A program made the translations under genes and the position numbers. Positions 3,971-33,812 of a stretch of 43,546 nucleotides of DNA are shown one piece after another (position 1 is the first letter of the stretch; each line of letters starts with the position of its first letter). The DNA comes from Candidatus Zhuqueibacterota bacterium (GTDB lineage Bacteria; Zhuqueibacterota; Zhuqueibacteria; Thermofontimicrobiales; Thermofontimicrobiaceae): positions 1 to 43,546 of the forward strand of contig JBMOPW010000040.1 in assembly GCA_049322915.1 (NCBI GenBank). Direction: 5' to 3'. The notes beneath the pieces are model-generated. The model saw only the letters and a program-made list of their open reading frames with translations, did not search any database and was not told the origin of the DNA.

Positions 3971-6016
3971 ATGACTAAAAATTATGCTGACCGATGGATG
4001 ACGTGGATGGTTGTGTGGCTTGTGCTGTCTTGTTTTTTGATCACGCCGGGATACGGCTACCTCAAAGCCAAGGGACAAAACATCGTCGATTCCAACGACC
4101 GCGAAATTCTTCTGCGCGGGATAGGTTTGGGCGGATGGCTTGTGCCGGAAGGCTATCAGCTTCACATCCCCGGATTCGGCTCGCCGACGTCCATTCGCAC
4201 CATGATCACCGATTTGATCGGCCCTGAAAATACAGCGGAGTTTTACAGTCGCTACGAAAGCAATTACGTCACTGAAGGCGATATTGAAAAAATAGCGTCC
4301 TGGGGATTCAATTCAATCCGCCTGCCTTTTTGCTATTATCTGGTGACGCCCAAAGATCAACCGGGCGTTTATTTGGAAGAGGGATTTGCCGTCATCGACA
4401 CTCTGCTCAATTGGTGCCGGAAGAACGAACTGTATTTGATCCTGGATTTGCATTGCGCGCCGGGCGGCCAGAGCAAGGATAACATCGCCGATGCGGATGG
4501 CGTTGAAGCGCGACTCTGGACAGAGCCGGCAAACCAGACGCGGACCGTTGACATGTGGAAAAAAATCGCTGAACGGTACGCCACTGAGGAATGGATCGGC
4601 GGCTACGATGTATTGAATGAGCCGGTGCTGCCTTCAGGTCATACCAATGCGGAACTGCGATTGCTCTACACGAGAATAACCGGGGCAATCCGCGAAGTGG
4701 ATACCAATCACATCATTTTCATCGAGGGAAACCGGTACGCCACAGATTTCACATCGCTGACGCCGCCTTTTGATACCAACCTGGTGTACAGTTTTCACAG
4801 ATACTGGTGTGAAAATACCCATGCGACGATTCAGAATTTTATCACAATTCGAAATACCTACAAGGTGCCGCTGTGGTTGGGTGAATCCGGGGAAAACTCC
4901 AACACATGGTTTTACGACGCCATCCGCCTGCTGGAAGATAATAAAATTGGCTGGTGCTGGTGGACTCATAAAAAAGTCGCAACGCTGACCAGTCCGTATT
5001 CGTCGCCGATTACTTCCAGCTATCAGGTTATTCTTGATTTTTGGAATAAGCTTCGCGAGGAACCCAGCCTGGAGTTCTCCAGAAATGCGCTGTTCGGAAT
5101 GGCGGAGAATTTAAAAACAGAGTATTGTGAATTCCGGCCGGATGTGCTGAAGTCGATGATGGATAAGGAATTTGGCGTGAAGCCAAAGCCCTACACTGAG
5201 CATGTCATCCCGGGAATTGTGAATTGCTCGGACTATGATTTTGGCCGGCAGGATATTGCCTACCACGACAGCGATTTTCAGAACGCGCGGGGCTTGACCA
5301 GCGGCGATCAATGGAATCGGGGTGACGAGTACCGCAACGATGGTGTGGATCTCCAACTCAGCAATGACAGCCAGGGCGCAAAGTACAGCATCGGCTGGAT
5401 CGAGACGGGCGAGTGGATGAAGTACACCGTGAGCGTGAGAGAATCCGGCAAGTACAATATACTGTTCCGCGTGGCGTCGCCGAATAGCACCGGCCGATTG
5501 CAGGTAATGCAGAATGATCAGCCGCTGACTTCAAACATCACTGTGCCCGGTACCGGCGGCTGGTTCAACTGGCAGACGCTCACCATCGAGGACGTCCAGA
5601 TGACAGCCGGAACGACCACCCTGACATTGTATGTCAGTCAGTCCGGATTCAATGTGAATTCCATGCGATTCGTCCTGGTTTCTTCATCCAATGGCCATAA
5701 CTTTTTAGACACCGTCCCCACCCGGCTGACGCTGAACCAGAACTATCCCAATCCATTCAATTCGGCCACCAATATCTGGTACGGCCTGCCGAATGATGCG
5801 CACGTGCGGATTGACATCTTCAACAGCCTGGGACAGTTTATTTCCTCGGTGGAAGATAGTGAGAAGTCATCCGGCTGGCATCTGGCCAACTGGTCGATTC
5901 AGGAGGACAATGCGTTCGCTTCGGACATTTCCAGCGGTGTGTATTTTTACCAGATCGAATCGACCTCGAAAAGTCAAACCCATTATTCCACTAAAAAAAT
6001 GCTTTACCTGAAGTAA
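3971..6016 (+). CDS. Secreted GH5 glycoside hydrolase (GH5_46-like) with CBM6 and C-terminal sorting domain
   Basis: LRGIGLGGW, LDLHCAPGGQ, YDVLNEP (acid/base), WLGESGEN (nucleophile); CBM6-like GWIETGEWMKYTV...TGGWFNWQT; LNQNYPNPFN C-terminal domain. ORF is open from 3884, but ATG 3971 or a nearby Met precedes the hydrophobic signal peptide. Confidence 0.85.
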   Translation: MTKNYADRWMTWMVVWLVLSCFLITPGYGYLKAKGQNIVDSNDREILLRGIGLGGWLVPEGYQLHIPGFGSPTSIRTMITDLIGPENTAEFYSRYESNYVTEGDIEKIASWGFNSIRLPFCYYLVTPKDQPGVYLEEGFAVIDTLLNWCRKNELYLILDLHCAPGGQSKDNIADADGVEARLWTEPANQTRTVDMWKKIAERYATEEWIGGYDVLNEPVLPSGHTNAELRLLYTRITGAIREVDTNHIIFIEGNRYATDFTSLTPPFDTNLVYSFHRYWCENTHATIQNFITIRNTYKVPLWLGESGENSNTWFYDAIRLLEDNKIGWCWWTHKKVATLTSPYSSPITSSYQVILDFWNKLREEPSLEFSRNALFGMAENLKTEYCEFRPDVLKSMMDKEFGVKPKPYTEHVIPGIVNCSDYDFGRQDIAYHDSDFQNARGLTSGDQWNRGDEYRNDGVDLQLSNDSQGAKYSIGWIETGEWMKYTVSVRESGKYNILFRVASPNSTGRLQVMQNDQPLTSNITVPGTGGWFNWQTLTIEDVQMTAGTTTLTLYVSQSGFNVNSMRFVLVSSSNGHNFLDTVPTRLTLNQNYPNPFNSATNIWYGLPNDAHVRIDIFNSLGQFISSVEDSEKSSGWHLANWSIQEDNAFASDISSGVYFYQIESTSKSQTHYSTKKMLYLK

Positions 6017-6033
6017 GGGAGAGGTGAACAACG

Positions 6034-7767
6034 ATGTTTTCTCACTCGAAAAATGAATGCCGGCTTAGCCATGCGTCTCTGTCTTTCTTGCGGCATGCTG
6101 GCCGAAGCACAGTGCTGACCGCGGCTGTACTTCTCGCACTCATGGTGAACTCCGCGCCGGCGGATGAAAAAGTCGTGTTCACTGATTCCAATCTGCCGAT
6201 CGTGGTCATCGACACGCACGGCCTGGAAATTCAGGACGAGCCGAAAATCACCGCCGATATGGGCATTATTTATAACGGCGAGGGGGTGCGAAATTATCTG
6301 TACGATGATCCGTACAATGAATATTTCGGCAAGATCGGTATCGAGTACCGCGGCTCCTCGACGCAGTCGTTCCCCAAGAAACAATTTGCAGTGGAGACGC
6401 GCGATATTCACGGCAACGATTCCACGGTGTCGCTGCTGGGTTTTCCGCCGGAAGATGATTGGATTCTGTACGCGCCTTTCACGGATAAATCGTTGATGCG
6501 GAACGTCCTGGCTTACAAACTCTTCAACGACATGGGGCGGTATGCAAGCCGCTCGCGGTACTGCGAAGTCGTGCTGAACGGCGATTACGTCGGCGTTTAC
6601 GTGCTGATGGAGAAAATCAAGCGGGACAAGAATCGCGTCAATATTTCCAAATTGGAACCCCAGGATTCTCAGGGCGACGATTTGACCGGCGGCTATATTT
6701 TTAAAATCGATAAATCCGATGGCGCAAAAAGCGATGGCTGGGAATCCCCGTTCCTGCCAATTCCCGGTTCCTGGCAGCGGATTTTTTATCAGTACCATTA
6801 TCCGGATCAGGAAGAAATCACCCCGGTGCAAAAGTCCTACATCCAGAATTTCATGTACAGATTCGAGAGCATGATGCAGGAATCCGATTATGCTGATCAG
6901 GAAACCGGCTACCGGTCGCAAATCAACGTCGACACCTTTGTTGACAATTTCATCATCCTCGAAATGGCCAAAAATGTGGATGGGTATCGCCTCAGCACCT
7001 ATTTTCATAAAGATCGCGACAGCAAAAATGGCAAGCTTTCTCTGGGGCCTATCTGGGATTACAACCTTGCCTTTGGCAATGCCGATTATTACGATGGCGC
7101 GGTCATCAGCGGCTGGCAGGTCGAGTTTTATCAGATCGATGATTACTGGCAGAATCCTTTCTGGTGGCGGAAACTGATGGCGGACACGAGTTTTGTCAAT
7201 GCCATCAATGCGCGGTGGTATCAACTTCGCGGCTCTGTTCTTGACGTCTTTCGGATCGAGGCGATCATCGATTCGCTGGTCACTCACATCGATGAAGCGC
7301 AGAAACGAAATTTCCAGCGCTGGCCCATTTTGAGCGAGTACATCTGGCCCAACGCCTACATCGGCGGCAGTTATTCCGCTGAAGTGCGCTATCTGAAACA
7401 GTGGGTTCACAGCCGCATATTGTGGATGGATGCCCACATGGTCGGCGCCTCCGGCGTCGAACGCAGCGATGATTCGGGCGCAACGCCTGGCAATTTCACT
7501 CTCAATCAGAACTATCCCAATCCGTTCAATGCCTCCACCCGCATTGACTATCAACTTCTGGCGCCGGCGCACGTTCGGCTTGTGCTGTACGATCTATTGG
7601 GGCGTTCCGTCGCCGTTCTCGCCGATGCTGTGCAGCCAGCCGGAAATTATGCCACGGTCTGGGATGGCGCCGATGCCAATGGCCAGCCGGTCGCCGATGG
7701 CGTTTATATTCTGCGTCTGGAATCCGGAGAGCATTATGCAAGCATCAAACTGGCGCTGGTGAAGTAG
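6034..7767 (+). CDS. CotH kinase family protein with C-terminal sorting/FlgD-Ig-like domain
   Basis: GIEYRGSSTQSFPKKQF, DKSLMRNVLAY, YVGVYVLMEKIKR, GPIWDYNLAFGN; signal peptide; LNQNYPNPFN...WDGADANG; GGAGAGG RBS upstream. Confidence 0.85.
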   Translation: MFSHSKNECRLSHASLSFLRHAGRSTVLTAAVLLALMVNSAPADEKVVFTDSNLPIVVIDTHGLEIQDEPKITADMGIIYNGEGVRNYLYDDPYNEYFGKIGIEYRGSSTQSFPKKQFAVETRDIHGNDSTVSLLGFPPEDDWILYAPFTDKSLMRNVLAYKLFNDMGRYASRSRYCEVVLNGDYVGVYVLMEKIKRDKNRVNISKLEPQDSQGDDLTGGYIFKIDKSDGAKSDGWESPFLPIPGSWQRIFYQYHYPDQEEITPVQKSYIQNFMYRFESMMQESDYADQETGYRSQINVDTFVDNFIILEMAKNVDGYRLSTYFHKDRDSKNGKLSLGPIWDYNLAFGNADYYDGAVISGWQVEFYQIDDYWQNPFWWRKLMADTSFVNAINARWYQLRGSVLDVFRIEAIIDSLVTHIDEAQKRNFQRWPILSEYIWPNAYIGGSYSAEVRYLKQWVHSRILWMDAHMVGASGVERSDDSGATPGNFTLNQNYPNPFNASTRIDYQLLAPAHVRLVLYDLLGRSVAVLADAVQPAGNYATVWDGADANGQPVADGVYILRLESGEHYASIKLALVK

Positions 7768-17470: not shown

Positions 17471-20400
17471 ATGAAGCAGACATTTCATATTGTTAAACTA
17501 ATCACGATCATCATGTTAATCATCACTTCGAGCCTGTTGGGCCAGGGTAAACAATACGACGGCCCGGACGATCCGGCCGGCGATATTGCTGCGGAGCGCG
17601 AAGGATACATGACCGGCAACCGGGTTTTTCTCTATTTCAAAAACAATACCGAACTGTCCGATTGGCCCAAAGTGGATGTGTCCAAATGGCCCAATACCTA
17701 CGACGGCGTGAAGATGCTGGACGGCATCGGACTGCTGATCGGGGCGTTGGTGTTCATTGAAAATGACTCAGTCCCGGTGGTGGATACCAATCGGGTCAAT
17801 TTATTGGACGCTCAGGGGAAATTGGATACATTGTTCTATCTGCAGACGAGCTATCGCGAAGAGATGGATCGGGATCCTTCCGGGACAGTGGAGTGGGGGC
17901 TCTATCCGGTGTTTGGCTATTTCAATGAATTGGGCGATTACCCGGCCATGAGCAACCGCGAAGCGTCCTGGCCATTCGGCGGCTGGCCCGATGCGCCGGA
18001 TTTTGTCGATGTAAATGGCGAAACCGAGTGGAATGGTCGTTTTGGCCGCGGCGTGAAGTACGCTAGTCTGGAAACCTACTTCGTGGCCAACGATGCCCAG
18101 GACCAGGAATACCTGGGCCCGGAAGATCGGGTTCAATACTATCCCCGTCCGGGACATTACATCGGCGATATTCGGCCCAATGTCACCATCCAAAAAGGCA
18201 AACCCTGGGGCGGCATCGGCATTCGCGTGGAGCAACGCGGGTTCCAGTGGAATAACGCGCAGACGCGGGATGCCATTTTTTGGGAATATAATATTGCCAA
18301 TATTTCGGATTACGACCTGACAGAAGTCGCTTTCGGTTATTGGGTGGATAATGCCATCGGCGACGCCATTGCCGGCAGCGGCGAAGACGATGAAGTCGGG
18401 TATTTTGATACACAGATTGATATGGCTTATTCGTGGGACATCGATGAAATCGGCCAGGGCGGCTTCAGAACCGGCACCATGGGATTCGCTTATCTGGAAA
18501 GCCCCGGTCTCGGCTACGATGAAAACGATAATGACCAGGATGGTCTCCTGGACGAAAAGCGCGATAATGACGCCGAAAATCTTGTGGGACCAATGGTTGG
18601 CATTTATAATCTTCAGAAATTTTTAGAGACGTATAAAATGACTGAAGCGGATCTGCGGGAACACTGGGACGCGGATGAAGACCAGGATTGGGAAGATGGT
18701 AATGATGTGAATAATAATGGTATTTATGAAAGCAATGAATTTGCCGGCGACGATGTCGGCCTCGATGGTGTGGGGCCGTCGGAATTGAACTATTACGGCC
18801 CGGATGAAGGTGAATGTAACCATCGCCCGGATCGGAAGGAAGGCGCCGCCGAACCCAATTTTGCCGAGACCGATGTGACCGAATCCGATATGGTCGGCTT
18901 GACCTCGTTCCTGTTGTTCCGCGTGCCGGATCATGTGCCGCCGTATATCCGCTGGTTCCGAAATGACCGTTCCATGTGGGAAATCGTCGGTCGCGACACG
19001 CTGCTGGAAAGCATCGAGTGGACAACCAATTTGATCGAAGTATTTGCTTCAGGCCCCTTCCCGCTGTTTCAGGGGAGGACCGAGCGCATTTCCATGGCGG
19101 AGATTCATTCCTATGATCCTCTCGAAGGTCTGAATTCCTCGGACCACCGCGCACCGTCGCTGTTCAACAAGAAAGAGATCGTTCAGATCATTTATGAAAA
19201 AGATTACCGCTGGGCCTCCGAGCCAAAGATGCCGACCCTTTCAGCGACTGCCGGCGATAGCTATGTCATTTTGACCTGGGACGATGTGGCCGATACCAAA
19301 ACGCGGGAACCCCTGTTGGGCAATATCAACGATTTCGAGGGCTACAAGTTGTACCGCACCACAGATAAGAAGCTCTCCGATCCACCGTTCATCACAGATG
19401 GTTACGGCGATCCGCTGTCCATCATCCCCATTTTCCAGTGCGATGTGATCGATACGCTGACCGGATTTGCGACGTGGGGCATCGATGAAACAGGCACGGC
19501 CTATTATCTCGGCGATGACGTCGGCATCCAGCATTATTATGTCGATACTGAAGTGAAGAACGGCATCACCTATTATTATTCATTGATCGCCTATGATTAC
19601 GGCATCCCGGATCTGGGCCCCGGCATCGCGCCCACGCCGAATACGATCAACACTATTGAACTTGATGAATCCGAAGAAGTACGACTGATCGGTCGTAATA
19701 TTCAAATTGTCACACCGCATCAAAAAGCAGCCGGGTATGTGCCCGATGAAATTGAGGTTGTCGCGAACCCAAATCTGATTGGAAATGCCCAGGTCGTGCC
19801 GGAGATCCTGTCGAAGAGCAAACTGAAGAGCGGCCATGTGTACAAAGTCAAATTCGATCTGGACACGGTTGATGTGGCGCCGAACTATCCGCACGGCATT
19901 CAATACGTGAACGACGGCTTCTTTGTGTACGACCAGACCGAAGACGATTCGCTCATTTTCAAGGAGTCGCCGGAGAAATATTCCGGCAACAATCTCGTGT
20001 TCGACGATTCGCTGAATGTGTGGCATTTCGATACCTCGGGCGAGCTTTCCACCGATGTCTTCGAGGGAATGCGCTTGAAAATCACCATGCCGTTTGTCAC
20101 GGCCAGTTACGATTACGCCAATTCCGGCTGGCTGGTTGGCAGCGCTCCTGTCTTGATTTCACCCATGATCGACGAGCAGCAATTCTACCCATGGGATTAT
20201 GATATTGTGTTTACCGATAATGATACAGCCTTTACCGGGATTACGACACCCAGCCGGGTTTATGACAATACGTACAGCCGGTTAGCAAAGGCCGATTTAT
20301 TGACGCAGCAGAAATTCAATTTCTACGTGGTCAATAAATCGTTCCAGGACAGCCTGGGCAACAATGAAGTGATGGATCTGATCGTCCACGACATGAACAA

Positions 20401-20950
20401 CAACGATGTCTTCGATATGGTTGGCGATCGCATTCTCGTCGGCCCGGTCTCCAGTCTCGGTAGCTGGTCAGGTACGGCGTTCGTCATCACGTTTTTAGAT
20501 AATAGCAAACTCCCGGCGCCGAACGACGTCTATCGAATCACGTTCAAGCGCCCGTTCTGGTCCACTGATTCCATTCTGTTCAAAACGACGTCCTTCGATT
20601 CGGTCCTGGATGTAAAGGATGTGAAAGAGAGTATGGACAAAATCCAGGTGGTTCCCAATCCCTACGTGGCTACCAATGCCATGGAGCCGGCTGTCGCCAA
20701 TTTCTATCTGAACCAGCGGAGACGCCTGATGTTCACACACATTCCGGCGCGATGCACAATCAAAATTTTCACGGTGAGCGGCGTGCTGGTCGATGAGATC
20801 GAGGTGGACAACCCTGTGTCGCAAGGCATTGTTCACTGGGACCTGTTATCCAGAGAAGGGCTGGAAATCGCCGCCGGCATGTACATTTACTACGTAAAAT
20901 CAACCCTGACCGGGGAGGAGAAAATTGGCAAATTCGCTGTGATCAAATAG
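17471..20950 (+). CDS. Large acidic secreted protein of unknown function with variant C-terminal sorting domain
   Basis: 1159 aa, signal peptide, AGAGG RBS; Asp-rich loops (DENDNDQDGLLDE, DVNNNGIYE); FN3-like DFEGYKLYR...NGITYYYSLIAYD; C-terminus IQVVPNPY...CTIKIFTVSG...WDLLSREG..IAAGMYIY...GKFAVIK. Confidence 0.75.
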   Translation: MKQTFHIVKLITIIMLIITSSLLGQGKQYDGPDDPAGDIAAEREGYMTGNRVFLYFKNNTELSDWPKVDVSKWPNTYDGVKMLDGIGLLIGALVFIENDSVPVVDTNRVNLLDAQGKLDTLFYLQTSYREEMDRDPSGTVEWGLYPVFGYFNELGDYPAMSNREASWPFGGWPDAPDFVDVNGETEWNGRFGRGVKYASLETYFVANDAQDQEYLGPEDRVQYYPRPGHYIGDIRPNVTIQKGKPWGGIGIRVEQRGFQWNNAQTRDAIFWEYNIANISDYDLTEVAFGYWVDNAIGDAIAGSGEDDEVGYFDTQIDMAYSWDIDEIGQGGFRTGTMGFAYLESPGLGYDENDNDQDGLLDEKRDNDAENLVGPMVGIYNLQKFLETYKMTEADLREHWDADEDQDWEDGNDVNNNGIYESNEFAGDDVGLDGVGPSELNYYGPDEGECNHRPDRKEGAAEPNFAETDVTESDMVGLTSFLLFRVPDHVPPYIRWFRNDRSMWEIVGRDTLLESIEWTTNLIEVFASGPFPLFQGRTERISMAEIHSYDPLEGLNSSDHRAPSLFNKKEIVQIIYEKDYRWASEPKMPTLSATAGDSYVILTWDDVADTKTREPLLGNINDFEGYKLYRTTDKKLSDPPFITDGYGDPLSIIPIFQCDVIDTLTGFATWGIDETGTAYYLGDDVGIQHYYVDTEVKNGITYYYSLIAYDYGIPDLGPGIAPTPNTINTIELDESEEVRLIGRNIQIVTPHQKAAGYVPDEIEVVANPNLIGNAQVVPEILSKSKLKSGHVYKVKFDLDTVDVAPNYPHGIQYVNDGFFVYDQTEDDSLIFKESPEKYSGNNLVFDDSLNVWHFDTSGELSTDVFEGMRLKITMPFVTASYDYANSGWLVGSAPVLISPMIDEQQFYPWDYDIVFTDNDTAFTGITTPSRVYDNTYSRLAKADLLTQQKFNFYVVNKSFQDSLGNNEVMDLIVHDMNNNDVFDMVGDRILVGPVSSLGSWSGTAFVITFLDNSKLPAPNDVYRITFKRPFWSTDSILFKTTSFDSVLDVKDVKESMDKIQVVPNPYVATNAMEPAVANFYLNQRRRLMFTHIPARCTIKIFTVSGVLVDEIEVDNPVSQGIVHWDLLSREGLEIAAGMYIYYVKSTLTGEEKIGKFAVIK

Positions 20951-22698: not shown

Positions 22699-24255
22699 AT
22701 GAATTCAGTGAAAGGCAGAATGACTTTTTCAACAAAATATCCCGGACCAAGCTTCGGCGGCCGTCCCTGGACGGCGCTGCTTCTGGCAATGCTCCTCATT
22801 TTTTCGAATTGCGGAAAGGAATCGGATAAAATTCCGGACGGGAAGATACTGGCGCGGGTCGGCGATACCATCATCACAGTCGATGAATTCCGGCGTCGCG
22901 CGGATTACACCATCCGCCCCATGTATTGCAACGGCGAGAACTACATTCACCGAAAGATCATTTTGAATTCGTTGATAGCCGAAAAACTGCTGGCGCTGGA
23001 AGCGGGCGAATCCAACGAGCTTACCGGGAGTGAGCAGTTTCGCGACTACATCCAGGGACGCGAGGAACAATCGCTGCGCCAATGGCTGTTTTATCATGAT
23101 TTCTATGACTGCGTTGCGCTGGATACCGCGGACATCCGGGCGAAGTACAAGGCAGCCGCCAGAGAATATACCATCGAGTACGTCTCGTTGAAGGATAGCG
23201 CCATTGCCGGAGAAATCGGGCGTCAGCTTCTGGCCGGCGACACGTTTGAGAATGTCTTTGCCGCGCTCGATTCGCTGCCGCAGCGGAAGGTCACCTGGGA
23301 ATCCCCGGAGCATGAGAAAATCCACGCCGCGCTGTTCAGCGGGCTGCTGCCCAAAGGGCGCATCATCGGCCCGCTGAAAATTGAACGCGATTTTTACATG
23401 GTCATGCGAGTGGCCGGCTATTCCGATGTGCATTACCTGACTGACTTTGATATCCGAAATCGCTACCGGGACGTTCAGGAGCGGATGACCCTGGACGCTG
23501 CCGTGGAGAGCTACGCGCAATTTGTTCAATCCGTGATGAAAGGGAAGCGGATCGATTTCAACCGGGACACTTTCAGGAAGCTGGTGAACCTCATCGGGCC
23601 GCTGTATCTGGCCGCTTCGAACCGAAATGAGGATGCGTTCGCCGGTCAGATCTGGCGCAAAGAAACAGAGGAGGTGTCGCTGGATTCCGTCTCGACCGAC
23701 ATCGATAAAATGGGGGAGGAGACCCTGCTCAAAATTGATGACGATGTCTGGACTGTGGCGCGCTTCAAAAAGGAATTGAATATTCATCCGCTCGTATTCC
23801 GGAAGAAGCAGATGAAGAAGGGCGAATTTTCAGAACAGTTCAAATACGCTGTCGCCGATATGATCCGCGATAAATATCTGGCCAACGAGGCGCGCCGAAA
23901 GGGCTACGATCGCGCGTTCGCTGTGTCCAACAATGTGGCAATGTGGCGGGATCATCTGATGGGGCTGTATCGCCGGAATGAATTCCTTGCCGAACGGGGC
24001 AAACTGGCCAGCTTTCAGAAAAACTACCTGACGATCCTCGATCACGATGTGAATCCCTACATCCGCGAGCTATTCCAGAAGTATTCCAATCAAATTCAGA
24101 TCAATACAGCGCTGTTCGAACGCACCGAACTTTCGCGAATCGATATGGTGGCGCTGCAAACCAATGTGCCGTTTCCTGTCGTCGTCCCGAATTTCCCCAT
24201 TGTCACGACGCACGATAAATTGGATTACGGCAGCCAGATGACCGGAACAAAGTAA
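22699..24255 (+). CDS. Foldase/peptidylprolyl-isomerase-like (SurA/PrsA-type) lipoprotein
   Basis: Lipobox LIFSNC; ILARVGDTIITVDEF, ILNSLIAEKLLALEA and a second similar module; the parvulin core looks degenerate; start may be ATG 22720. Confidence 0.55.
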   Translation: MNSVKGRMTFSTKYPGPSFGGRPWTALLLAMLLIFSNCGKESDKIPDGKILARVGDTIITVDEFRRRADYTIRPMYCNGENYIHRKIILNSLIAEKLLALEAGESNELTGSEQFRDYIQGREEQSLRQWLFYHDFYDCVALDTADIRAKYKAAAREYTIEYVSLKDSAIAGEIGRQLLAGDTFENVFAALDSLPQRKVTWESPEHEKIHAALFSGLLPKGRIIGPLKIERDFYMVMRVAGYSDVHYLTDFDIRNRYRDVQERMTLDAAVESYAQFVQSVMKGKRIDFNRDTFRKLVNLIGPLYLAASNRNEDAFAGQIWRKETEEVSLDSVSTDIDKMGEETLLKIDDDVWTVARFKKELNIHPLVFRKKQMKKGEFSEQFKYAVADMIRDKYLANEARRKGYDRAFAVSNNVAMWRDHLMGLYRRNEFLAERGKLASFQKNYLTILDHDVNPYIRELFQKYSNQIQINTALFERTELSRIDMVALQTNVPFPVVVPNFPIVTTHDKLDYGSQMTGTK

Positions 24256-26840: not shown

Positions 26841-26896
26841 TGCATAATTGTTTATAGGCGCTCCTTTTGAGTTTGTTTAATTCATTGTAAAAGCAT

Positions 26897-27496
26897 GCCA
26901 CGAGCTGAAGCATCCCGAAGTTATGGGACAGGCTGTGGCTATTCAGAAGTTCGGGGCAATTTAGAATTCTGGGCCATCCGAAAATGTAAATTGGTTGGCT
27001 CTAATTGAATAGCCCCGATCTTTAGATCGGGGACAAATGAGCTTCCCTAACCGATTTCGGGCTTTAGCCCATTTGCTTCGCGCACGAGCTGGGGCTAAAG
27101 CCCCGGGATATTTTTTTTGGGAGAATTCTATCCACGAGCTAAAGCATCCCGAAGTTACGGGACAGGCTGTGGCTATTCAGAAGCTTGTGGCAATTTAAAG
27201 CTTGGGGAAATTTATAATTCTGGGCCATCCGAAAATTTAAATTGGTTTGCTCTGATTGAATAGCCCCGATCTTTAGATCGGGGACAGATGGCCCTCCCCC
27301 AACGATTTCGGGCTTTAGCCCATTTGCACGCGCACGAGTTGGGGCTAAAGCCCCGGGATATTTTTTTCGGAGCATTCTATCCACGAGTTAAAACTCGTGG
27401 CAATTCAAAGCTCGATGCGTTGGCTCTGTTTGAATAGTCCCGATTTTTCGTTCGGGAATACATGGCGCACCCCAACCAATTTTCAGGCGTTCGCCC
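26897..27496. repeat. Tandem array of ~240-bp palindrome-rich REP-like units (about 2.5 copies)
   Basis: Units start at CCACGAG 26898, 27132 and 27381 (periods 234 and 249); they contain CCCCGATCTTTAGATCGGGG, GGGCTTTAGCCC/GGGCTAAAGCCC and CCACGAGTTAAAACTCGTGG-type palindromes. Confidence 0.9.
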
Positions 27497-27530
27497 ATTT
27501 TAAAAAAAACAAACTTAAGAAAGGAACCCT

Positions 27531-30500
27531 ATGAAAGCCGCCCCACTGTGGTACTCCCGACCCATCTTTATCACCTCTACTTTTCGCGACATGCACGCCG
27601 AACGCGACTATCTGCGCAACGTGATTTTCCCGGAACTGGAAGAACGCCTGAAGGAACGCCGCCACATGCTGGAACCGATTGACCTGCGCTGGGGCGTGGA
27701 GACGGTGAGCGTGGATGAGGAGCACTCCAAAGAACTGCTGGTGTTAAAAGTCTGCCTCGCGGAAATCGAGCGCAGCCGGCCGTTTCTCATTGCCCTGCTC
27801 GGCGACCGCTACGGCTGGACGCCGCCGGAAGAGCGCCTGGCCGCCGCAGCCCAGGAAGCCGGGTTCACCGGCGATGTGCGCCAGAAAAGCATCACCGCGC
27901 TGGAGATCGAATTCGGCGTGCTCGACAGTCCGGATCAGCGCCGGCGCAGTTATTTCTACTTCCGCGAGCCTCTGCCGTATGACACGATGCCGGCCGAAGT
28001 CGCCGCGCTTTACAGCGACGCCCATAGCACCGCGCCCGAAGCCGTTGCCGCAGCGCAGCGACTGGCTGAGCTCAAACGCCGCATCGAACGCCAGCCGGAC
28101 CTGAAAGACCGCGTGCGTCATTACCGCGCCGGCTGGGACGAAGCCCAACAGGAAGTGACCGGCCTGGAAGCCTGGGGCAACATGGTGCTGGAAGACCTGT
28201 GGCGCGATTTGCAGGACGAGACCGAAAAATATTTGCGCGCGCCGATTCCGACCTGGCAGGAACAGGAACGCTGGGCACTGGAAGAGTTCGTGCAGGGACG
28301 CAGCCGCGTATTCATCGGAAGGCAGGCGATCAGCGACCAACTCATGCGCACGGCGCTGGCGCCGGATGCGCCGGACACGCCGCAGGAACTCTGTCTGATC
28401 GGGGATCCCGGCTCCGGCAAGAGCGCGCTGTTCAGCCATCTTTATCGGCGACTGCAAAAGGAAGACGTGCTGCTGCTGGCCAACGCCGCCGGCATCAGCC
28501 CGGACTCCGCCTCTGTGGATGCCATTGTCCGGCGCTGGATTGAAGAAATCGCCCTGTTCCTTGGCATTCGCAATCCGCTTTCGGAGAAGCCGACGGCCGA
28601 TGAACTGCGGGACCAATTGACCCTTCTGTTGGGCCGCGCCGGCGCGCAGCAGCGGGTGATTCTGTTGCTCGACGCCCTGAACCAGTTGGAACAAACGCCC
28701 CGCGCGCGCCAGCTCACCTGGCTGCCAAAAACACTGCCGCCGAACGTGCGCCTCATCGCCACCGCCTTGCCCGGCGCAGAAGCCGAGGCGGTCAGCCGAC
28801 GCAATGGGCAGACGCTGAACTTGCCGCCGTTGCCGGCGCCGGAAGCCCGCGAGATCATAAACGCCGCATGCAGCCGCTATCACCGCCAGATTCACCCGCA
28901 GGTGGCCGCCATGCTGCTGGATAAAAAAGACGCTGCCGGCAACCCGGTCTGCGGCAATCCGCTCTGGCTGGAACTGGCCGTGGACCAACTCAACCTGCTG
29001 GACAGCGACGACTTCACCCGCGCCGAGCGCCAGTACCAGGGCAGCGCCGAAGAAAAATTGCACCAGTTGCTGCTGGACACGGCGCGGCAACTGCCGAATT
29101 CAATCGAAGGGCTTTACGACTGGATGCTGGCCGGCAACGAAACCGCCTACGGCGAAGCCTGGAGCAAAGCTCTGGCGGTGTCCATTGCCCTGAGCCGCAG
29201 CGGCTGGCGGGAGAGCGACCTGCGCGCGCTGCTGCCGCAGTTCAGCGAAACGCCCTGGGATGACCTGCGCTTTGCCGCGCTGCGCCGGGGATTTCGCGCC
29301 CATCTGGTCCGGCGCGGCGGCCTGGGTCAATATGATTTTTTCCACCAGCAGATGCGCCTGGCCGTGTCTCGCCGCTACTTCAGCGACGAGCGCACGAAAC
29401 AGGCGATGCACCATGCGCTTGCCGATTACCTGGCCACCCTGCCGGACAACGACGCCCTGCGCTGCAGCGAACGCATGGTGCACCTGCTCGCCGCCGGCGT
29501 GGACACCGAAGCTGCGCGCTATTATGCCGGGTATCTGAACGACGCTGAATTGAACGGCGCCACCCGCGGCCTGGCCGAACAAGTTTTAGCAGCTCAGGGA
29601 ACAACTCCCAACCTGGCGATGGCGCGATTGACGGCCTGGCTGACCGATACAAATCTCACCCATGCCCAGCAGGGGCTCATCTGTCAGCGATTCAATTTTA
29701 ATCTCCGTGACGCCATTTCCAATGCAGCAGACCTGTCAACCCAACGACAATTATTAGAACCGGTAAAACAGACATTGGAGAGATTGTCGCAGTCGGATCC
29801 GTCGAATACGGCGTGGCAGCGCGACCTGGCTGCGGCTCATTGTTTTGTTGGAATAATCTTTCAACAACAAGGCAAACTTGCTGAGGCTTTAAATGAATAC
29901 CAAGCTTATAAAAAGGGAATGGAGAAATTGTCGCAGTCGGATCCGTCGAATACGGCGTGGCAGCGCGACCTGTCCGTGAGCTATAATAAGGTTGGCGAAG
30001 TGTTGATCGCGCAGGGAGATCTGGTCCAGACGCATACGGCCTATCGCCAGTCGCTGGGGATTGCCGAGAAATTGTCGCAGTCGGATCCGTCGAATACGGC
30101 GTGGCAGCGCGACCTGGCTGCGAGCTATTCTAAGGTGGGTGATGTGTTGATCGCGCAGGGTGATCTGGTCCAGGCGCAGACGGCCTATCGCCAGTCGCTG
30201 GGGATTGCCGAGAAATTGTCGCAGTCGGATCCGTCGAATAGCCAATGGCAATTTGATCTGGGTATCAGTAATGAACGAATGGGGACTGTATTCCAGGCGC
30301 AGGGTAACTTAGAACGAGCGTTGCATCATTATAAAAACAAGCAATCAATCATAGAGAAATTGTCGCAGTCGGATCCGTCGAATACGGCGTGGCAGCGCGA
30401 CCTGTCCGTGAGCTATAATAAGGTGGGCGATGTGTTGATCGCGCAGGGAGATCTGGTCCAGGCGCAGACGGCCTATGGCCAGTCGCTGGGGATTCGGGAG

Positions 30501-32318
30501 AAATTGTCGCAGTCGGATCCGTCGAATACGGCGTGGCAGCGCGACGTGTATGTAAGCTATATTAAAATTGGCGATGTGTTGCGCGCTCAGGGCGATCTGG
30601 TCCAGGCGCAAACGGCCTATCGCCAGTCGCTGGGGATTATGGAGAAATTGTCGCAGTCGGATCCGTCGAATACGGAGTGGCAGCGCGACCTGTTCGTGAG
30701 CTATATTAAGGTTGGCGATGTGTTGCGCGCTCAGGGCGATCTGGTCCAGGCGCAAACGGCCTATCGCCAGTCGCTGGGGATTATGGAGAAATTGTCGCAG
30801 TCGGATCCGTCGAATACGGCGTGGCAGCGCGACCTGGCTGGGAGCTATTCTAAGGTTGGCGATGTGTTGCGCGTCCAGGGTGATCTGGTCCAGGCGCAGA
30901 CGGCCTATCGCCAGTCGCTGGTGATTCGGGAGAAATTGTCGCAGTCGGATCCGTCGAATACGGAGTGGCAGCGCGACCTGTCCGCGAGCTATGACAGAAT
31001 TGGCGATGTGTTGCGCGCCCAGGGTGATCTGGTCCAGGCGCAGACGGCCTATGGCCAGTCGCTGGGGATTGCCGAGAAATTGTCGCAGTCGGATCCATCG
31101 AATACGGCGTGGCAGCGCGACCTGGCTGCGGCTCATTGTTTTGTTGGAATAATCTTTCAACAACAAGGCAAACTTGCTGAAGCCTTGAAAGAATACCAGA
31201 AATATCAAACGCGAATGGAAAAATTAGTTCAGGCCGACTCGTCCAATTCCGCGTGGCAAAACGAACTATCCACGAGCTATGATAAACTAGGTGATGTGTA
31301 TAGCGCCCAGGGTAATTTGCAACAGGCACTGGTCGCCTATCAACAGTCACTATCAATTTGTGAGAAATTGGCGCAAGTCGATCCATCCAATAGTGCGTGG
31401 CAGCGTAGCATATCCGTGAGTTACATTAAAGTCGGTGATGTGTACAGCGCCCAGGGCAATCTGCGACAAGCACTTAGTGTCTATCAACAATCTAACGCTA
31501 TCTTTGAAAAATTAGTACAGTCCGATCTATCCAATAGTGAGTGGCAGCGTGATCTGTCTGCAAGCTATGACCGAATCGGCGATGTATACATTGCCCAAGG
31601 CAATCTGCGCCAAGCACTTACGTCGTATCAACAATTACTGGCGATTACCAAGAAATTAGCTCAGGCCGATTTGTCCAATCACGTGTTGCAACGTAACTTG
31701 TCTGTGAGTTACAACAAGATTGGCGACGTGTTCCGTGCTCAGGGCAATCTGCGTCAGGCGATCACGTCATTTCAACAGTCACTCGCGATTGCCGAGAAAT
31801 TGTCGCAGTCGGATCCGTCGAATACGGAGTGGCAGCGCGACCTGTCCGTGAGCTATGACAGAGTTGGCGATGTGTTGATCGCGCAGGGGGATCTGGTCCA
31901 GGCGCAGACGGCCTATGGCCAGTCGCTGGGGATTGCCGAGAAATTGTCGCAGTCGGATCCGTCGAATACGGCGTGGCAGCGAGACCTGTCCGTGAGCTAT
32001 GAGAAAATGGGCGATGTGTTGATCGCGCAGGGGGATCTGGTCCAGGCGCAGACGGCCTATCGCCAGTCGCTGGTGATTAGGGAGAAATTGTCGCAGTCGG
32101 ATCCGTCGAATACGGAGTGGCAGCGCGACCTGTCCGTGAGCTATAATAAAGTTGGGGATGTGTTGATCGCGCAGGGGGATCTGGTCCAGGCGCAGACGGC
32201 CTATGGCCAGTCGCTGGTGATTCGGGAGAAATTGTCGCAGTCGGATCCGTCGAATACGGCGTGGCAGCGCGACCTGTCCGTGAGCTATGCAAAGGTTGGC
32301 GATGTGTTGCGCGCCTAG
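27531..32318 (+). CDS. NLR-like protein: DUF4062-like N-terminal domain, NACHT/STAND-type NTPase, TPR-like repeat array (ends at a premature TAG)
   Basis: IFITSTFRDMHAERDYL..PIDLRWGV..CLAEIERSRPFLIALLGDRYGW..SITALEI; Walker A GDPGSGKS (28401-28424); Walker B VILLLDALNQL; GNPLWL; AAGGA RBS; 48-aa repeats from 29778. Confidence 0.85.
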   Translation: MKAAPLWYSRPIFITSTFRDMHAERDYLRNVIFPELEERLKERRHMLEPIDLRWGVETVSVDEEHSKELLVLKVCLAEIERSRPFLIALLGDRYGWTPPEERLAAAAQEAGFTGDVRQKSITALEIEFGVLDSPDQRRRSYFYFREPLPYDTMPAEVAALYSDAHSTAPEAVAAAQRLAELKRRIERQPDLKDRVRHYRAGWDEAQQEVTGLEAWGNMVLEDLWRDLQDETEKYLRAPIPTWQEQERWALEEFVQGRSRVFIGRQAISDQLMRTALAPDAPDTPQELCLIGDPGSGKSALFSHLYRRLQKEDVLLLANAAGISPDSASVDAIVRRWIEEIALFLGIRNPLSEKPTADELRDQLTLLLGRAGAQQRVILLLDALNQLEQTPRARQLTWLPKTLPPNVRLIATALPGAEAEAVSRRNGQTLNLPPLPAPEAREIINAACSRYHRQIHPQVAAMLLDKKDAAGNPVCGNPLWLELAVDQLNLLDSDDFTRAERQYQGSAEEKLHQLLLDTARQLPNSIEGLYDWMLAGNETAYGEAWSKALAVSIALSRSGWRESDLRALLPQFSETPWDDLRFAALRRGFRAHLVRRGGLGQYDFFHQQMRLAVSRRYFSDERTKQAMHHALADYLATLPDNDALRCSERMVHLLAAGVDTEAARYYAGYLNDAELNGATRGLAEQVLAAQGTTPNLAMARLTAWLTDTNLTHAQQGLICQRFNFNLRDAISNAADLSTQRQLLEPVKQTLERLSQSDPSNTAWQRDLAAAHCFVGIIFQQQGKLAEALNEYQAYKKGMEKLSQSDPSNTAWQRDLSVSYNKVGEVLIAQGDLVQTHTAYRQSLGIAEKLSQSDPSNTAWQRDLAASYSKVGDVLIAQGDLVQAQTAYRQSLGIAEKLSQSDPSNSQWQFDLGISNERMGTVFQAQGNLERALHHYKNKQSIIEKLSQSDPSNTAWQRDLSVSYNKVGDVLIAQGDLVQAQTAYGQSLGIREKLSQSDPSNTAWQRDVYVSYIKIGDVLRAQGDLVQAQTAYRQSLGIMEKLSQSDPSNTEWQRDLFVSYIKVGDVLRAQGDLVQAQTAYRQSLGIMEKLSQSDPSNTAWQRDLAGSYSKVGDVLRVQGDLVQAQTAYRQSLVIREKLSQSDPSNTEWQRDLSASYDRIGDVLRAQGDLVQAQTAYGQSLGIAEKLSQSDPSNTAWQRDLAAAHCFVGIIFQQQGKLAEALKEYQKYQTRMEKLVQADSSNSAWQNELSTSYDKLGDVYSAQGNLQQALVAYQQSLSICEKLAQVDPSNSAWQRSISVSYIKVGDVYSAQGNLRQALSVYQQSNAIFEKLVQSDLSNSEWQRDLSASYDRIGDVYIAQGNLRQALTSYQQLLAITKKLAQADLSNHVLQRNLSVSYNKIGDVFRAQGNLRQAITSFQQSLAIAEKLSQSDPSNTEWQRDLSVSYDRVGDVLIAQGDLVQAQTAYGQSLGIAEKLSQSDPSNTAWQRDLSVSYEKMGDVLIAQGDLVQAQTAYRQSLVIREKLSQSDPSNTEWQRDLSVSYNKVGDVLIAQGDLVQAQTAYGQSLVIREKLSQSDPSNTAWQRDLSVSYAKVGDVLRA

Positions 32319-33000
32319 GGTGATCTGGTCCAGGCGCAGACGGCCTATCGCCAGTCGCTGGAGATTCGGGAGAAATTGTCGCAGTCGGATCCATCGAATA
32401 CGGCGTGGCAGCGCGACCTGTCCGTGAGCTATGACAGAGTTGGCGATGTGTTGATCGCGCAGGGGGATCTGGTCCAGGCGCAGACGGCCTATCGCCAATC
32501 GCTGGAGATTGACGAGAAATTGTCGCAGTCGGATCCGTCGAATACGGCGTGGCAGCGCGACCTGTCCGTGAGCTATGACAGAGTTGGCAATGTGTTGAAC
32601 GCCCAGGGGGATCTGGTCCAGGCGCAGACGGCCTATCGCCAGTCGCTGGGGATTGCCGAGAAATTGTCGCAGTCGGATCCGTCGAATACGGCGTGGCAGC
32701 GCGACCTGTCCGTGAGCTATAATAAAGTGGGTGATGTTTTGCGCGCGCAGGGGGATCTGGTCCAGGCGCAGACGGCCTATCGCCAGTCGCTGGCCATTGA
32801 CGAGAAATTGTCGCAGTCGGATCCGTCGAATACGGCGTGGCAGCGCGACCTGTTCGTGAGCCATATTAAGGTTGGCGAAGTGATGATCGCGCAGGGGGAT
32901 CTGGTCCAGGCGCAGACGGCCTATCGCCAGTCGCTGGGGATTGCCGAGAAATTGGTGCAGTCGGATCCGTCGAATACGGAGTGGCAGCGCGACGTGTGGG
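29778..33000 (+). repeat. Coding tandem repeat: 22 x 144 bp (48 aa) plus a partial capping unit
   Basis: Exact 144-bp period from 29778 to 32945; consensus EKLSQSDPSNTAWQRDLSVSYNKVGDVLIAQGDLVQAQTAYRQSLGIA; capping unit starts at 32946. Confidence 0.97.
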
Positions 33001-33173
33001 TTTCGTACTGGCGAATGGCGTTAATGGCCGAACAAAGCGGCGATAACACAGCCGCGCAATGGTGGCGAAAAGCTTATGACAAATTGAATGGCATGAAACA
33101 GGCTGGTTTCTTCATCTCTCCAGATGATGAAAAATATCTGGACCAGTTGCGCCGCAAGGTGGGGGCGAAATAA
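32319..33173 (+). pseudogene. In-frame continuation of the NLR-like gene beyond the TAG (rest of repeat 18, repeats 19-22, C-terminal cap)
   Basis: Same frame and repeat phase as the 27531 ORF; the 32376 start is only an internal TTG Leu codon; read-through gives 1880 aa. Confidence 0.85.
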
Positions 33174-33185
33174 ATAAAATCATTC

Positions 33186-33636
33186 TGAATAGCCCCGATC
33201 CCGCTCGCGGGTTCGGAATTCAATGGAGCGCCCCAATCAATTTCGGGCGTTCGCCCAATCCCGTTCACGTTAGCTATGCAATCCGGAGTGCAGCGCCTTC
33301 ATCATCTGTACTCCTTAATGTAATTTTATAAAGGAAACGATACAGGTATGCGCTGCTGCGCATTGCAATCCATAAAGGGATTGCACTCCGTTTTCCTTCA
33401 ATTCCGTCTTAAGTTAACAGCATTGGGCGTTCGCCCATTCTCTTTCGGCGGGAGAATCGGGGGCTAAAGCCCAGGGATATTTTTTTGGGAGCATTCTATC
33501 CACGAGTTAAAACTTCCCGAAGTAACGGGACAGGCTGTGGCAATTCAAAAATTGGGCAATTTAGAATTCCGGGCCAATTAAAAATACCAATTGATTGGCT
33601 CGAATTGAATAGCCCCGATCCCGCGAGGGATCGGGG
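33186..33636. repeat. Downstream continuation of the ~240-bp REP-like array with a ~180-bp insertion
   Basis: TGAATAGCCCCGATC at 33186 and 33606; GGGCGTTCGCCC at 33245 and 33425; GGGCTAAAGCCC at 33461; GCATTCTATCCACGAGTTAAAACT at 33491; same orientation as the upstream array. Confidence 0.88.
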
Positions 33637-33812
33637 AACTGGCTGATGATCCGCTAAAAAGGTGGCGGCGCATTTACACTGATTAAGAATCCGTGAAGAT
33701 CAGCGCGGAACGTCCGCCGATTTTTTAGGAGGATCATCCGCGTAATCAGCGTTCTATTTCTTTTTTGGTTCTGGCTTGTCCAGGTTAGGCCACTGCATCG
33801 AATGCCCGCCGG

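Follow-up and report, generated by a model that had tools for sequence, protein, structure and literature searches.

What does a bacterial gene encode when a long run of its sequence consists of 144-nt repeats that are nearly identical except at a few fixed codons, and how is such an array maintained? The question is raised by contig JBMOPW010000040.1 of the Candidatus Zhuqueibacterota bacterium assembly GCA_049322915.1. The window analyzed here is this entire 43.5-kb contig (43,546 nt), one of the 45 contigs of a 6.25-Mb genome, and the gene occupies positions 27531..33173 of its plus strand as a single frame of 1880 codons with one internal TAG and a natural TAA stop. A first description made from the letters alone (the sequence-only reading) had proposed an NLR-like sensor with a recombinationally reprogrammable code in its repeats. 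We predict that the gene product is an NLR-like STAND receptor encoded by a single gene. The best explanation overall, which we regard as probable, is a receptor with a NADase effector, a NACHT switch and a sensor made of TPR units that evolve in concert. The argument starts from what the locus displays directly: its architecture, the anatomy of the repeats, the positional pattern of their variation, traces of recombination and a stop codon.

The array is regular to the codon. A single period-144 array is called by Tandem Repeats Finder (29922–32997, 21.4 copies, score 3110), and in the reading frame units begin every 48 codons with no insertion or deletion, giving 22 units at 29778–32945, as the sequence-only reading had stated, and a degenerate 23rd from 32946. 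Fifteen of the 22 form a near-identical set: units 2–3 (29922..30209), units 5–9 (30354..31073) and units 15–22 (31794..32945), the last block containing the stop codon in unit 18. Pairwise nucleotide identity within this set is 86–97%, and a 51-nt core is matched at 50–51 of 51 bases in all 15 units and also in units 1 and 10, in agreement with the 15 almost identical units and shared core of ~50 nt described earlier. Unit 1 (29778..29921), of N-cap type, and unit 10 (31074..31217), an internal copy of it, are chimeric when compared with the consensus, with the core followed by diverged sequence; they are 91% identical to each other, and either is 56–62% identical to the remaining units. Unit 4 (30210..30353) and units 11–14 (31218..31793) are old, diverged units, the latter 62–71% identical to the near-identical ones. 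Unit 23, the C-cap, and a C-terminal tail that is conserved in homologues complete the protein (32946..33173). The G+C content (GC) of units 11–14 is 0.47, and 0.50 at third codon positions (GC3), versus a GC of 0.63 and a GC3 of 0.75 in both the near-identical units and the N-terminal module; because units 11–14 are so much lower in GC, the gene is compositionally mosaic.

Variation among the 15 near-identical units is not uniform across codons, a point on which the sequence-only reading had made its proposal depend. Codons 18–32 (45 bases) contain 24 of the 37 variable bases and the other 99 bases contain 13 (Fisher p = 9e-7). The residue sets given earlier for eight positions are exact, namely 18 (S/A/Y/F), 19 (V/A/G), 22 (N/S/I/D/E/A), 23 (K/R), 24 (V/I/M), 29 (I/R/N), 46 (G/V/E/A) and 48 (A/R/M/D), and these eight codons account for 66% of the nucleotide diversity; multi-base codon changes, also reported there, occur at positions 18, 22, 29, 46 and 48. 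All eight positions are real, but the list had missed positions 12 (A/E), 26 (D/E/N) and 42 (R/G). The statement that the units are identical even at synonymous sites holds outside codons 18–32, where the proportion of synonymous differences (pS) is 0.051, and fails inside this segment, where pS is 0.346, a 7-fold difference.

To interpret these positions, a structural register is required. AlphaFold2 (AF2), run on units 1–9 without an alignment, gives a model with a predicted local distance difference test score (pLDDT) of 95.7; four of the five models are at 95 or above and one is at 36.1. Each unit in the model comprises helix A (positions 11–30), a turn, helix B (positions 34–48 plus positions 1–6 of the next unit) and a DPSN loop. 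The fold is a TPR superhelix that superimposes best on the TPR domains of LGN/Pins (TMt 0.83–0.85). The repeats match many Pfam TPR families, including TPR_12 (216 bits), TPR_1, TPR_2 and, weakly, TPR_NPHP3, and the TPR_1 and TPR_2 profiles cover 26–29 residues within each unit. TPR_2 aligns protein residues 1250–1278 to profile positions 4–32 and TPR_1 aligns residues 1253–1278 to positions 7–32, which sets the unit position equal to the canonical position plus 17. It follows from this register that the 48-residue unit is a 34-residue TPR in which each helix is longer by ~7 residues, or about two turns (34 + 14), and that unit positions 19, 22, 23, 26, 29 and 30 are canonical TPR positions 2, 5, 6, 9, 12 and 13. 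Bacterial TPR-like repeats can exceed 34 residues and share very high identity with one another, as in the ‘42PR’ class reportedly described by Marold et al. in 2015. The present repeat likewise exceeds 34 residues, but its period is exactly 48, neither the 34 of the canonical TPR nor the 42 of 42PR.

The variable helix-A sites are canonical TPR positions 1, 2, 5, 6, 7, 9 and 12. According to the analysis of TPR sequences by Magliery and Regan (2005, PMC1261162), variability is greatest at positions 2, 5, 9, 12, 13, 33 and 34, which are on the concave face, and positions 2, 5, 6, 9, 12 and 13 contact peptide in HOP co-crystals. The variable residues of helix A would therefore coincide with the concave, ligand-contacting positions of the TPR fold. 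On a helical wheel, helix-A variability points ~150–190 degrees away from the hydrophobic moment, and exposed positions on the convex face of the same helices are not variable in the present array.

Is this pattern peculiar to one gene? Relatives of the N-terminal module number at least 823 at E ≤ 0.001 in a set of 7994 scored candidates, the best of them 63% identical, and the four closest homologues, each compared over its whole sequence, share the 48-residue period. Of the 120 homologues listed, 33 have at least one adjacent pair of units that are ≥80% identical in protein and nine have at least five units within 75% of the medoid. In these nine the most variable positions are 22, 48, 23, 12, 19, 15, 26, 30, 21 and 29, so that all six canonical sites (19, 22, 23, 26, 29 and 30) fall within the top 10 of 48. 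The entropy profiles of the present array and the nine homologues are correlated (rho 0.37, p = 0.009), and six of the ten most variable positions are common to both (Fisher p = 0.0025).

The same question was addressed with DNA from 158 related loci in GTDB genomes and JGI metagenomes; units with stops or N were dropped, and the near-identical set was defined as units ≥85% identical to the medoid. At least one unit is present in 78 loci; the near-identical set contains one unit in 45 loci, two in 11, three in 12, four in four and five in two, with one locus each at 6, 7, 8 and 14 units. The last is locus L089, with 14 of its 19 units. By this rule the present array, with 15 of 23 units, is the largest among the loci compared, though it does not stand alone. 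The closest relative locus is 66% identical in the JGI metagenome contigs and 73% in the GTDB genomes, and neither collection yielded a nearer, strain-level allele.

Selection was gauged from pairwise Nei–Gojobori proportions, a crude measure in which pairs within an array are non-independent and neither a tree nor a multiple-hit correction is applied. Among the 15 units the ratio of non-synonymous to synonymous proportions (pN/pS) is 0.55 over all 48 codons. It is 0.95 at the eight sites of the sequence-only reading and 0.25 at the other 40 codons, and 0.65 at the six canonical sites and 0.47 at the other 42. Non-synonymous diversity is 5.5-fold higher at the canonical sites (0.272 versus 0.049). 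Because synonymous diversity is raised there as well and pN/pS remains below 1, positive selection is not demonstrated in the present array. In 10 foreign DNA arrays, each with at least four near-identical units and none dropped as a duplicate, the six sites chosen a priori give a pooled pN/pS of 1.42 (bootstrap over arrays 1.19–1.77), and taken singly all 10 arrays are at 1.03 or above; the other 42 codons pooled give 0.50 (bootstrap 0.41–0.59).

These values bear on a simpler account, in which relaxed constraint and concerted evolution suffice, no adaptive ‘code’ exists and the variable sites are merely tolerant, exposed residues that change neutrally. The ratios of the present array are compatible with it, as is the rise of synonymous diversity in the very segment where the protein varies. 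Codons that are invariant in amino acid but vary synonymously are three of four inside codons 18–32 and three of 26 outside, which fits a segment escaping homogenization. A neutral process of this kind should nevertheless also reach the exposed convex-face positions of the same helices, which do not vary here, and in TPRs generally it is the concave binding face that varies and not the exposed convex one, as reported in the TPR analysis cited above (PMC1261162). It would also have to produce hypervariability at the same six predefined positions in arrays that were amplified independently, with a pooled ratio above 1 at those positions in the foreign arrays. We consider the neutral account rather unlikely.

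How can an array be uniform in one part of each unit and diverse in another? Units 1, 10 and 23 match the near-identical consensus over bases 1–51 at 98%, 98% and 92% identity, and over the remaining 93 bases at 35%, 38% and 25%; unit 4 is identical to the shared core over exactly its first 31 bases. All four gametes are present for 31 of 55 pairs of informative biallelic sites, with a minimum number of recombination events (Rm) of 6 within 144 nt, and the nearest relative of a unit is often distant in the array (unit 2 with 22, 5 with 17 and 8 with 18). The presence of an internal cap-type copy, unit 10, implies at least one block duplication. Together, the chimeric units, the four-gamete pairs and the contrast in pS fit a homogenization or exchange that is anchored in the core and carries a variable cassette between cores, and the recombination suggested by the sequence-only reading thus has left traces between units. 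Under the favored explanation, unequal crossing-over and gene conversion anchored in the 51-nt core would drive concerted evolution of the array, keeping the scaffold uniform and shifting units around while diversity persists in a cassette made up of codons 18–32 plus 42, 46 and 48.

A different source of variation, a diversity-generating retroelement, was considered and rejected: the 17 large open reading frames (ORFs) include no reverse transcriptase, the consensus base is A at only six of the 37 variable positions and no copy of a unit lies elsewhere in the genome. A two-unit DNA query over the genome matched only inside the gene, and no silent donor cassettes were found by it.

Unit number, unit order and some of the chimeras could alternatively be products of a short-read assembler that collapsed or mis-joined repeats. 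The assembly is of metagenome type, in 45 contigs, and the read-level check consisted of k = 31 (Logan) contigs from two runs only, a biofilm metagenome (X1) and a cave metagenome (X2). Run X1 is probably the source: it contains 83% of sampled words, at a depth of ~87 over the unique part, and its matching pieces show no other letters. Its contigs fragment throughout the array, however, and 24 of the 80 homologous GTDB loci (L002–L081) lie on contigs that end within 700 nt past the N-terminal module. No X1 contig covers 30136–30359 and no X2 contig covers most bins of the array, gaps from which we draw no inference. Against an artefact, exact repeats in the array reach at most 108 nt and no 127-mer occurs twice, so that a large-k assembly at this depth could resolve it; the period is exactly 144 with the frame intact over 23 units, and comparable near-identical sets occur in other assemblies, as in L089. 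We judge an artefact to be distinctly improbable. The frequency with which contigs end just past the N-terminal module in homologous loci suggests that such arrays often break short-read assemblies and are therefore under-represented in databases.

Run X2 contains a relative with 50 differences in 1329 nt (~96% identical). One 174-nt contig from this run joins a unit-3-like end directly to a unit-5-like unit, skipping unit 4, and gives a weak hint that the array of this relative is arranged differently.

What would such an array be attached to? Two N-terminal domains and a linker precede the repeats. The first (27549..28214, residues 7–228) is a DUF4062 domain, also called NIR or TeTIR, with a Pfam match (PF13271) over residues 12–101 at 41.8 bits (cut-off 24.7); over residues 7–228 phmmer aligns it to the TIR-like domain whose structure is known from human TEP1 (PDB 11gz_A; E = 2.3e-25). 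Residues E125, R93 and R19 align with TEP1 E1008, R976 and R908. This numbering, in which E125 is paired with chain residue 115 of 11gz_A, takes the 220-residue chain to end at 1113 (the construct is given as 895–1113 in the preprint), which makes residue 115 E1008 and places R908 on the aligned arginine of ‘STFRDM’. The predicted catalytic Glu125 is encoded at 27903–27905; the corresponding NADase glutamate is reported as E1008 in TEP1, E97 in KpSwz and E108 in PsAvs2. Both E125 and R93 are invariant across a 21-member family alignment. Three preprints from 2026 (bioRxiv 10.64898/2026.09.04.749371, 10.64898/2026.05.01.722283 and 10.64898/2026.09.21.753143) report that DUF4062 hydrolyzes NAD+, that it is the effector in the anti-phage systems Avs2, Swarozyc, Vulcan and Vesta and that it precedes NACHT in human TEP1, NWD1, NWD2 and NPHP3 and in ‘several bacteria and archaea’. 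We therefore predict that the N-terminal domain is a TIR-like NAD+ hydrolase and the effector of the protein.

The second domain is a NACHT-type STAND NTPase (28311..28865, residues 261–445), recognized both by Pfam and by fold search. The Pfam NACHT score is 32.4 bits (cut-off 26.7), and the cut-offs of AAA_16 and NPHP3_N are exceeded too. Walker A residues G294, G296, K297 (28419–28421) and S298 and Walker B residue D381 are invariant in the same 21 family members. The linker between the NTPase and the repeats (28866..29777) is helical or winged-helix-like; it is all-helical in the AF2 model, in blocks mostly with pLDDT >80, and is conserved family-wide. The model of residues 1–749 has a pLDDT of 82.4, and its nearest folds are the plant TIR-NLR RPP1, Avs3, Apaf-1 and MalT, with low TM-scores as expected for multi-domain chains. 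The NLR-like character proposed by the sequence-only reading is borne out by the NACHT score, the invariant Walker residues and these folds, whereas the DUF4062 effector had been overlooked.

Ligand binding by the array and an immune role for the protein are predictions that these parts suggest. In the model we propose, the C-terminal superhelix of 22 (+1) 48-residue TPR-like units would be the sensor and the NACHT NTPase the oligomerization switch. A foreign protein, most likely a phage protein, would bind in the groove, and binding would cause the NACHT modules to oligomerize and bring the NADase domains together. Clustering of the NADase domains would deplete NAD+ and lead to abortive infection, an outcome reported for PsAvs2-type and KpSwz proteins (10.64898/2026.09.04.749371; 10.64898/2026.05.01.722283).

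The present copy of the gene carries an obstacle to any such function. Codon 31 of unit 18 (32316–32318, plus strand) is an in-frame TAG, as the sequence-only reading had noticed, where 14 sister units have CAG. With the TAG the product would have at most 1595 residues and would lack the last 4.4 units and the C-cap. Reading of TAG as a sense codon is ruled out, since TAG is the ordinary stop of seven of the 18 ORFs of the window and hence is not reassigned. A 91-nt contig from run X1 (32261–32351, depth 63) carries the TAG with no other letters.

Does the TAG then mark a pseudogene, with the array a functionless relic? We give this possibility about an even chance. The assembly and the 91-nt X1 contig agree on the codon, with no alternative letter in the latter; it is a normal stop in this genome, and no defense context surrounds the gene. 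However, X1 could be the very data from which the assembly was made, in which case it adds no independent support. Apart from the TAG no lesion interrupts the 1880 codons, a further 284 codons are open up to the family-conserved C-cap and the natural stop, and the catalytic and NTPase motifs are all intact. A single lesion among intact motifs implies that the inactivation, if real, is very recent, and says nothing about the former function. The present copy is probably a freshly inactivated allele, with the recency deduced from these features.

A more elaborate reading would turn the lesion into a property of the system: a self-editing sensor with a reversible off-switch, combining recombinational phase variation and specificity variation in one innate receptor. 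Because 14 sister units have CAG and the TAG is flanked by identical or near-identical stretches of 51 and 39 nt, the frame could be reopened at high frequency, either by gene conversion within the array or by an unequal crossover that deletes unit 18. If this were true, a population could keep a toxic NADase receptor mostly ‘off’ while yielding ‘on’ variants with new specificities, the same recombination dealing new orders of ligand-contacting cassettes. We regard this reading as a very long shot.

Several further observations weigh against a functional immune receptor with a diversifying sensor, the explanation that we favor, and are collected here. (i) The sequence-only reading placed the variable sites roughly on one helix face. 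For helix A they do lie opposite the hydrophobic face, but the permutation test for a single face, significant in the homologues (p = 0.002), is not significant in the present array alone (p = 0.07), and helix B shows no common face (p = 0.6–0.7, with 0.70 for its sites 42, 46 and 48 in the present array). (ii) The concave placement derives from the TPR register and is not a measured accessibility. (iii) Even at the six canonical sites, pN/pS in the present array does not exceed 1. (iv) The gene is interrupted by the TAG and so may not be functional at all. (v) The order and number of units depend on a metagenome-derived assembly checked with k = 31 contigs. (vi) Searches of PADLOC-DB 2.0.0 with residues 1–797 matched no family at E ≤ 0.01, including Avs (Avs1–5) and bNACHT, the systems to which the sequence-only reading had likened the protein; the whole protein matches only the generic ‘TPR’ model. 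NCBIfam likewise has no family matching residues 1–797. (vii) The neighboring genes are for polysaccharide utilization and type IX secretion (GH5, GH16, TonB-dependent receptors, Por_Secre_tail and PorV), and none of 17 neighboring ORFs matches PADLOC at E ≤ 1e-5, so that no defense island is evident.

The last two points raise the possibility of a STAND protein that signals in a non-immune pathway, as a regulator or scaffold whose TPRs bind an endogenous partner. The carbohydrate-utilization neighbors and the lack of a defense island would be natural for such a protein, and a MalT-type STAND fold (8bob_C) is matched at rank 7 in the search with residues 1–749. Against it, there is no DNA-binding or other output domain, and the only effector present is of NADase type with an intact catalytic glutamate. 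The taxonomic distribution of the gene is also patchy, with no orthologue detected in 40 relatives, and hypervariable sensor positions would be unexpected for a fixed endogenous partner. We consider a non-immune role very improbable.

How does the proposed receptor compare with known systems? Fungal and bacterial NLRs have been reported to share WD and TPR repeats with 80–90% internal identity (Dyrka et al. 2020, bioRxiv 10.1101/2020.01.06.895854). In that account the NLRs with highly internally conserved (HIC) WD40, ANK or TPR repeats, which include Podospora HET-E, HET-D and HNWD, NB-ARC/NACHT-TPR proteins and bacterial counterparts, likewise combine a STAND NTPase with repeats that are ≥80–90% identical, confine variation to a few ligand-facing positions and bear traces of unit reshuffling. 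Compared with the HIC-repeat proteins as described there, the present gene differs in its 48-residue TPR variant, its DUF4062/NIR NADase effector and its uncultured bacterial host; its array has no pN/pS above 1 and is a single sequence rather than an allele series. The ‘per-repeat code’ of the sequence-only reading is thus an idea already in print for fungal and bacterial NLR repeats (10.1101/2020.01.06.895854).

The closest likeness in the effector is to the PsAvs2/NIR-STAND proteins (10.64898/2026.09.04.749371) and KpSwz (10.64898/2026.05.01.722283), which are described as having the same N-terminal DUF4062 NADase with a catalytic glutamate, a STAND NTPase and C-terminal helical repeats as the sensor. 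Unlike these, the present gene has no PADLOC match over residues 1–797, its NTPase scores as NACHT/NPHP3_N and it is known from sequence alone; its sensor is a regular array, whereas that of PsAvs2 and KpSwz is described as an irregular TPR lobe. Animal TEP1, NWD1, NWD2, TTC41 and NPHP3 share the three-part DUF4062–NACHT–repeat architecture (10.64898/2026.09.21.753143), and the present protein aligns directly to the N-terminal domain of human TEP1 and is above cut-off for NPHP3_N, as noted above. It is bacterial, lacks the TROVE/VWA extension reported for the animal proteins and keeps the catalytic glutamate, which NPHP3 is reported not to keep. Near-identical repeats are a feature of the present gene that does not figure in that preprint’s description of the animal TeTIR proteins.

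The principle of homogenized repeats with variable ligand positions is therefore not new, being in print for fungal and bacterial NLRs. The present gene adds to it a very large array within the NIR-NACHT-TPR family and the 34 + 14 layout of its 48-residue unit. Across that family the hypervariable positions agree with the canonical ligand-binding set of the TPR; in the gene itself the cap units are chimeras that show where recombination joined them, and one fresh nonsense codon is present.

Current work on bacterial STAND/NLR sensors treats them as fixed pattern-recognition receptors that detect conserved phage proteins. Arrays such as the present one suggest that a branch of the NIR-NACHT-TPR family diversifies its binding groove through repeat shuffling, as fungal NLRs do. 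The regular, confidently modeled scaffold and a small putative specificity set (unit positions 12, 19, 22, 23, 26, 29, 30 and 48) would make the family tractable for asking how ligand specificity is written in the order of the repeats and the residues chosen, and whether the scaffold can be engineered into binders. The family also provides a direct link from bacteria to the domain layout of human TEP1, NWD1 and NPHP3.

Where did the gene come from? The GC of its N-terminal module is 0.63 versus 0.47–0.57 in neighboring genes. In a search of 41 genomes including its own (29 of them ≥90% complete), no orthologue of the module was detected in the 40 relatives at E ≤ 1e-20; the module is single-copy in its own genome, where no paralogue matched. 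Homologues are scattered over Armatimonadota, Planctomycetota, KSB1, Nitrospirota, Bacillota, Proteobacteria, Bacteroidota and others. Because horizontal acquisition fits the contrast in GC, the absence from relatives, the single copy and the spread of homologues over many phyla, the gene was probably acquired horizontally. Elsewhere in the window, within the polysaccharide-utilization and type IX secretion neighborhood, three large ORFs at 169–3618, 17471–20950 and 22699–24255 (1149, 1159 and 518 residues) have no Pfam or PADLOC match at E ≤ 1e-5.

The gene is flanked by copies of a repeat element, three partial direct copies of ~200–250 nt upstream (26890..27482) and one copy downstream (33440..33640). 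Its sequence includes GGGGCTAAAGCCCC hairpins, which T-runs follow, and a palindrome of the form CCCCGATC...GATCGGGG. Promoter-like sites in both flanks and terminator-like sites upstream are within ~1 standard deviation (sd) of shuffled sequence; the downstream flank has four terminator-like sites, compared with 1.1 on average after shuffling (sd 1.1). A contig from run X2 joins sequence resembling the downstream flanking repeat (33591–33637) to the gene start (27463–27629), with four extra bases between. This joint, which leads from 33637 back by 6175 to 27463, is most simply explained by a different copy of the flanking repeat upstream of the gene in that strain, one that resembles the downstream copy of the window more closely. 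It may also represent a tandem or circular form of a gene cassette, though we do not read it as a circle.

The same genome encodes a second STAND protein, L160, on contig C18 (7700–10852, minus strand, 1050 residues), with 275 N-terminal residues that have no domain assignment, a NACHT domain (56 bits) and a C-terminal domain of the FGE-sulfatase type, which is said to be one of the sensor types in a 2026 Nature survey of bacterial STANDs. The only other sequences of the flanking element in the genome are two short fragments on this contig, and both lie near L160, at 6001–6035 and 7199–7246.

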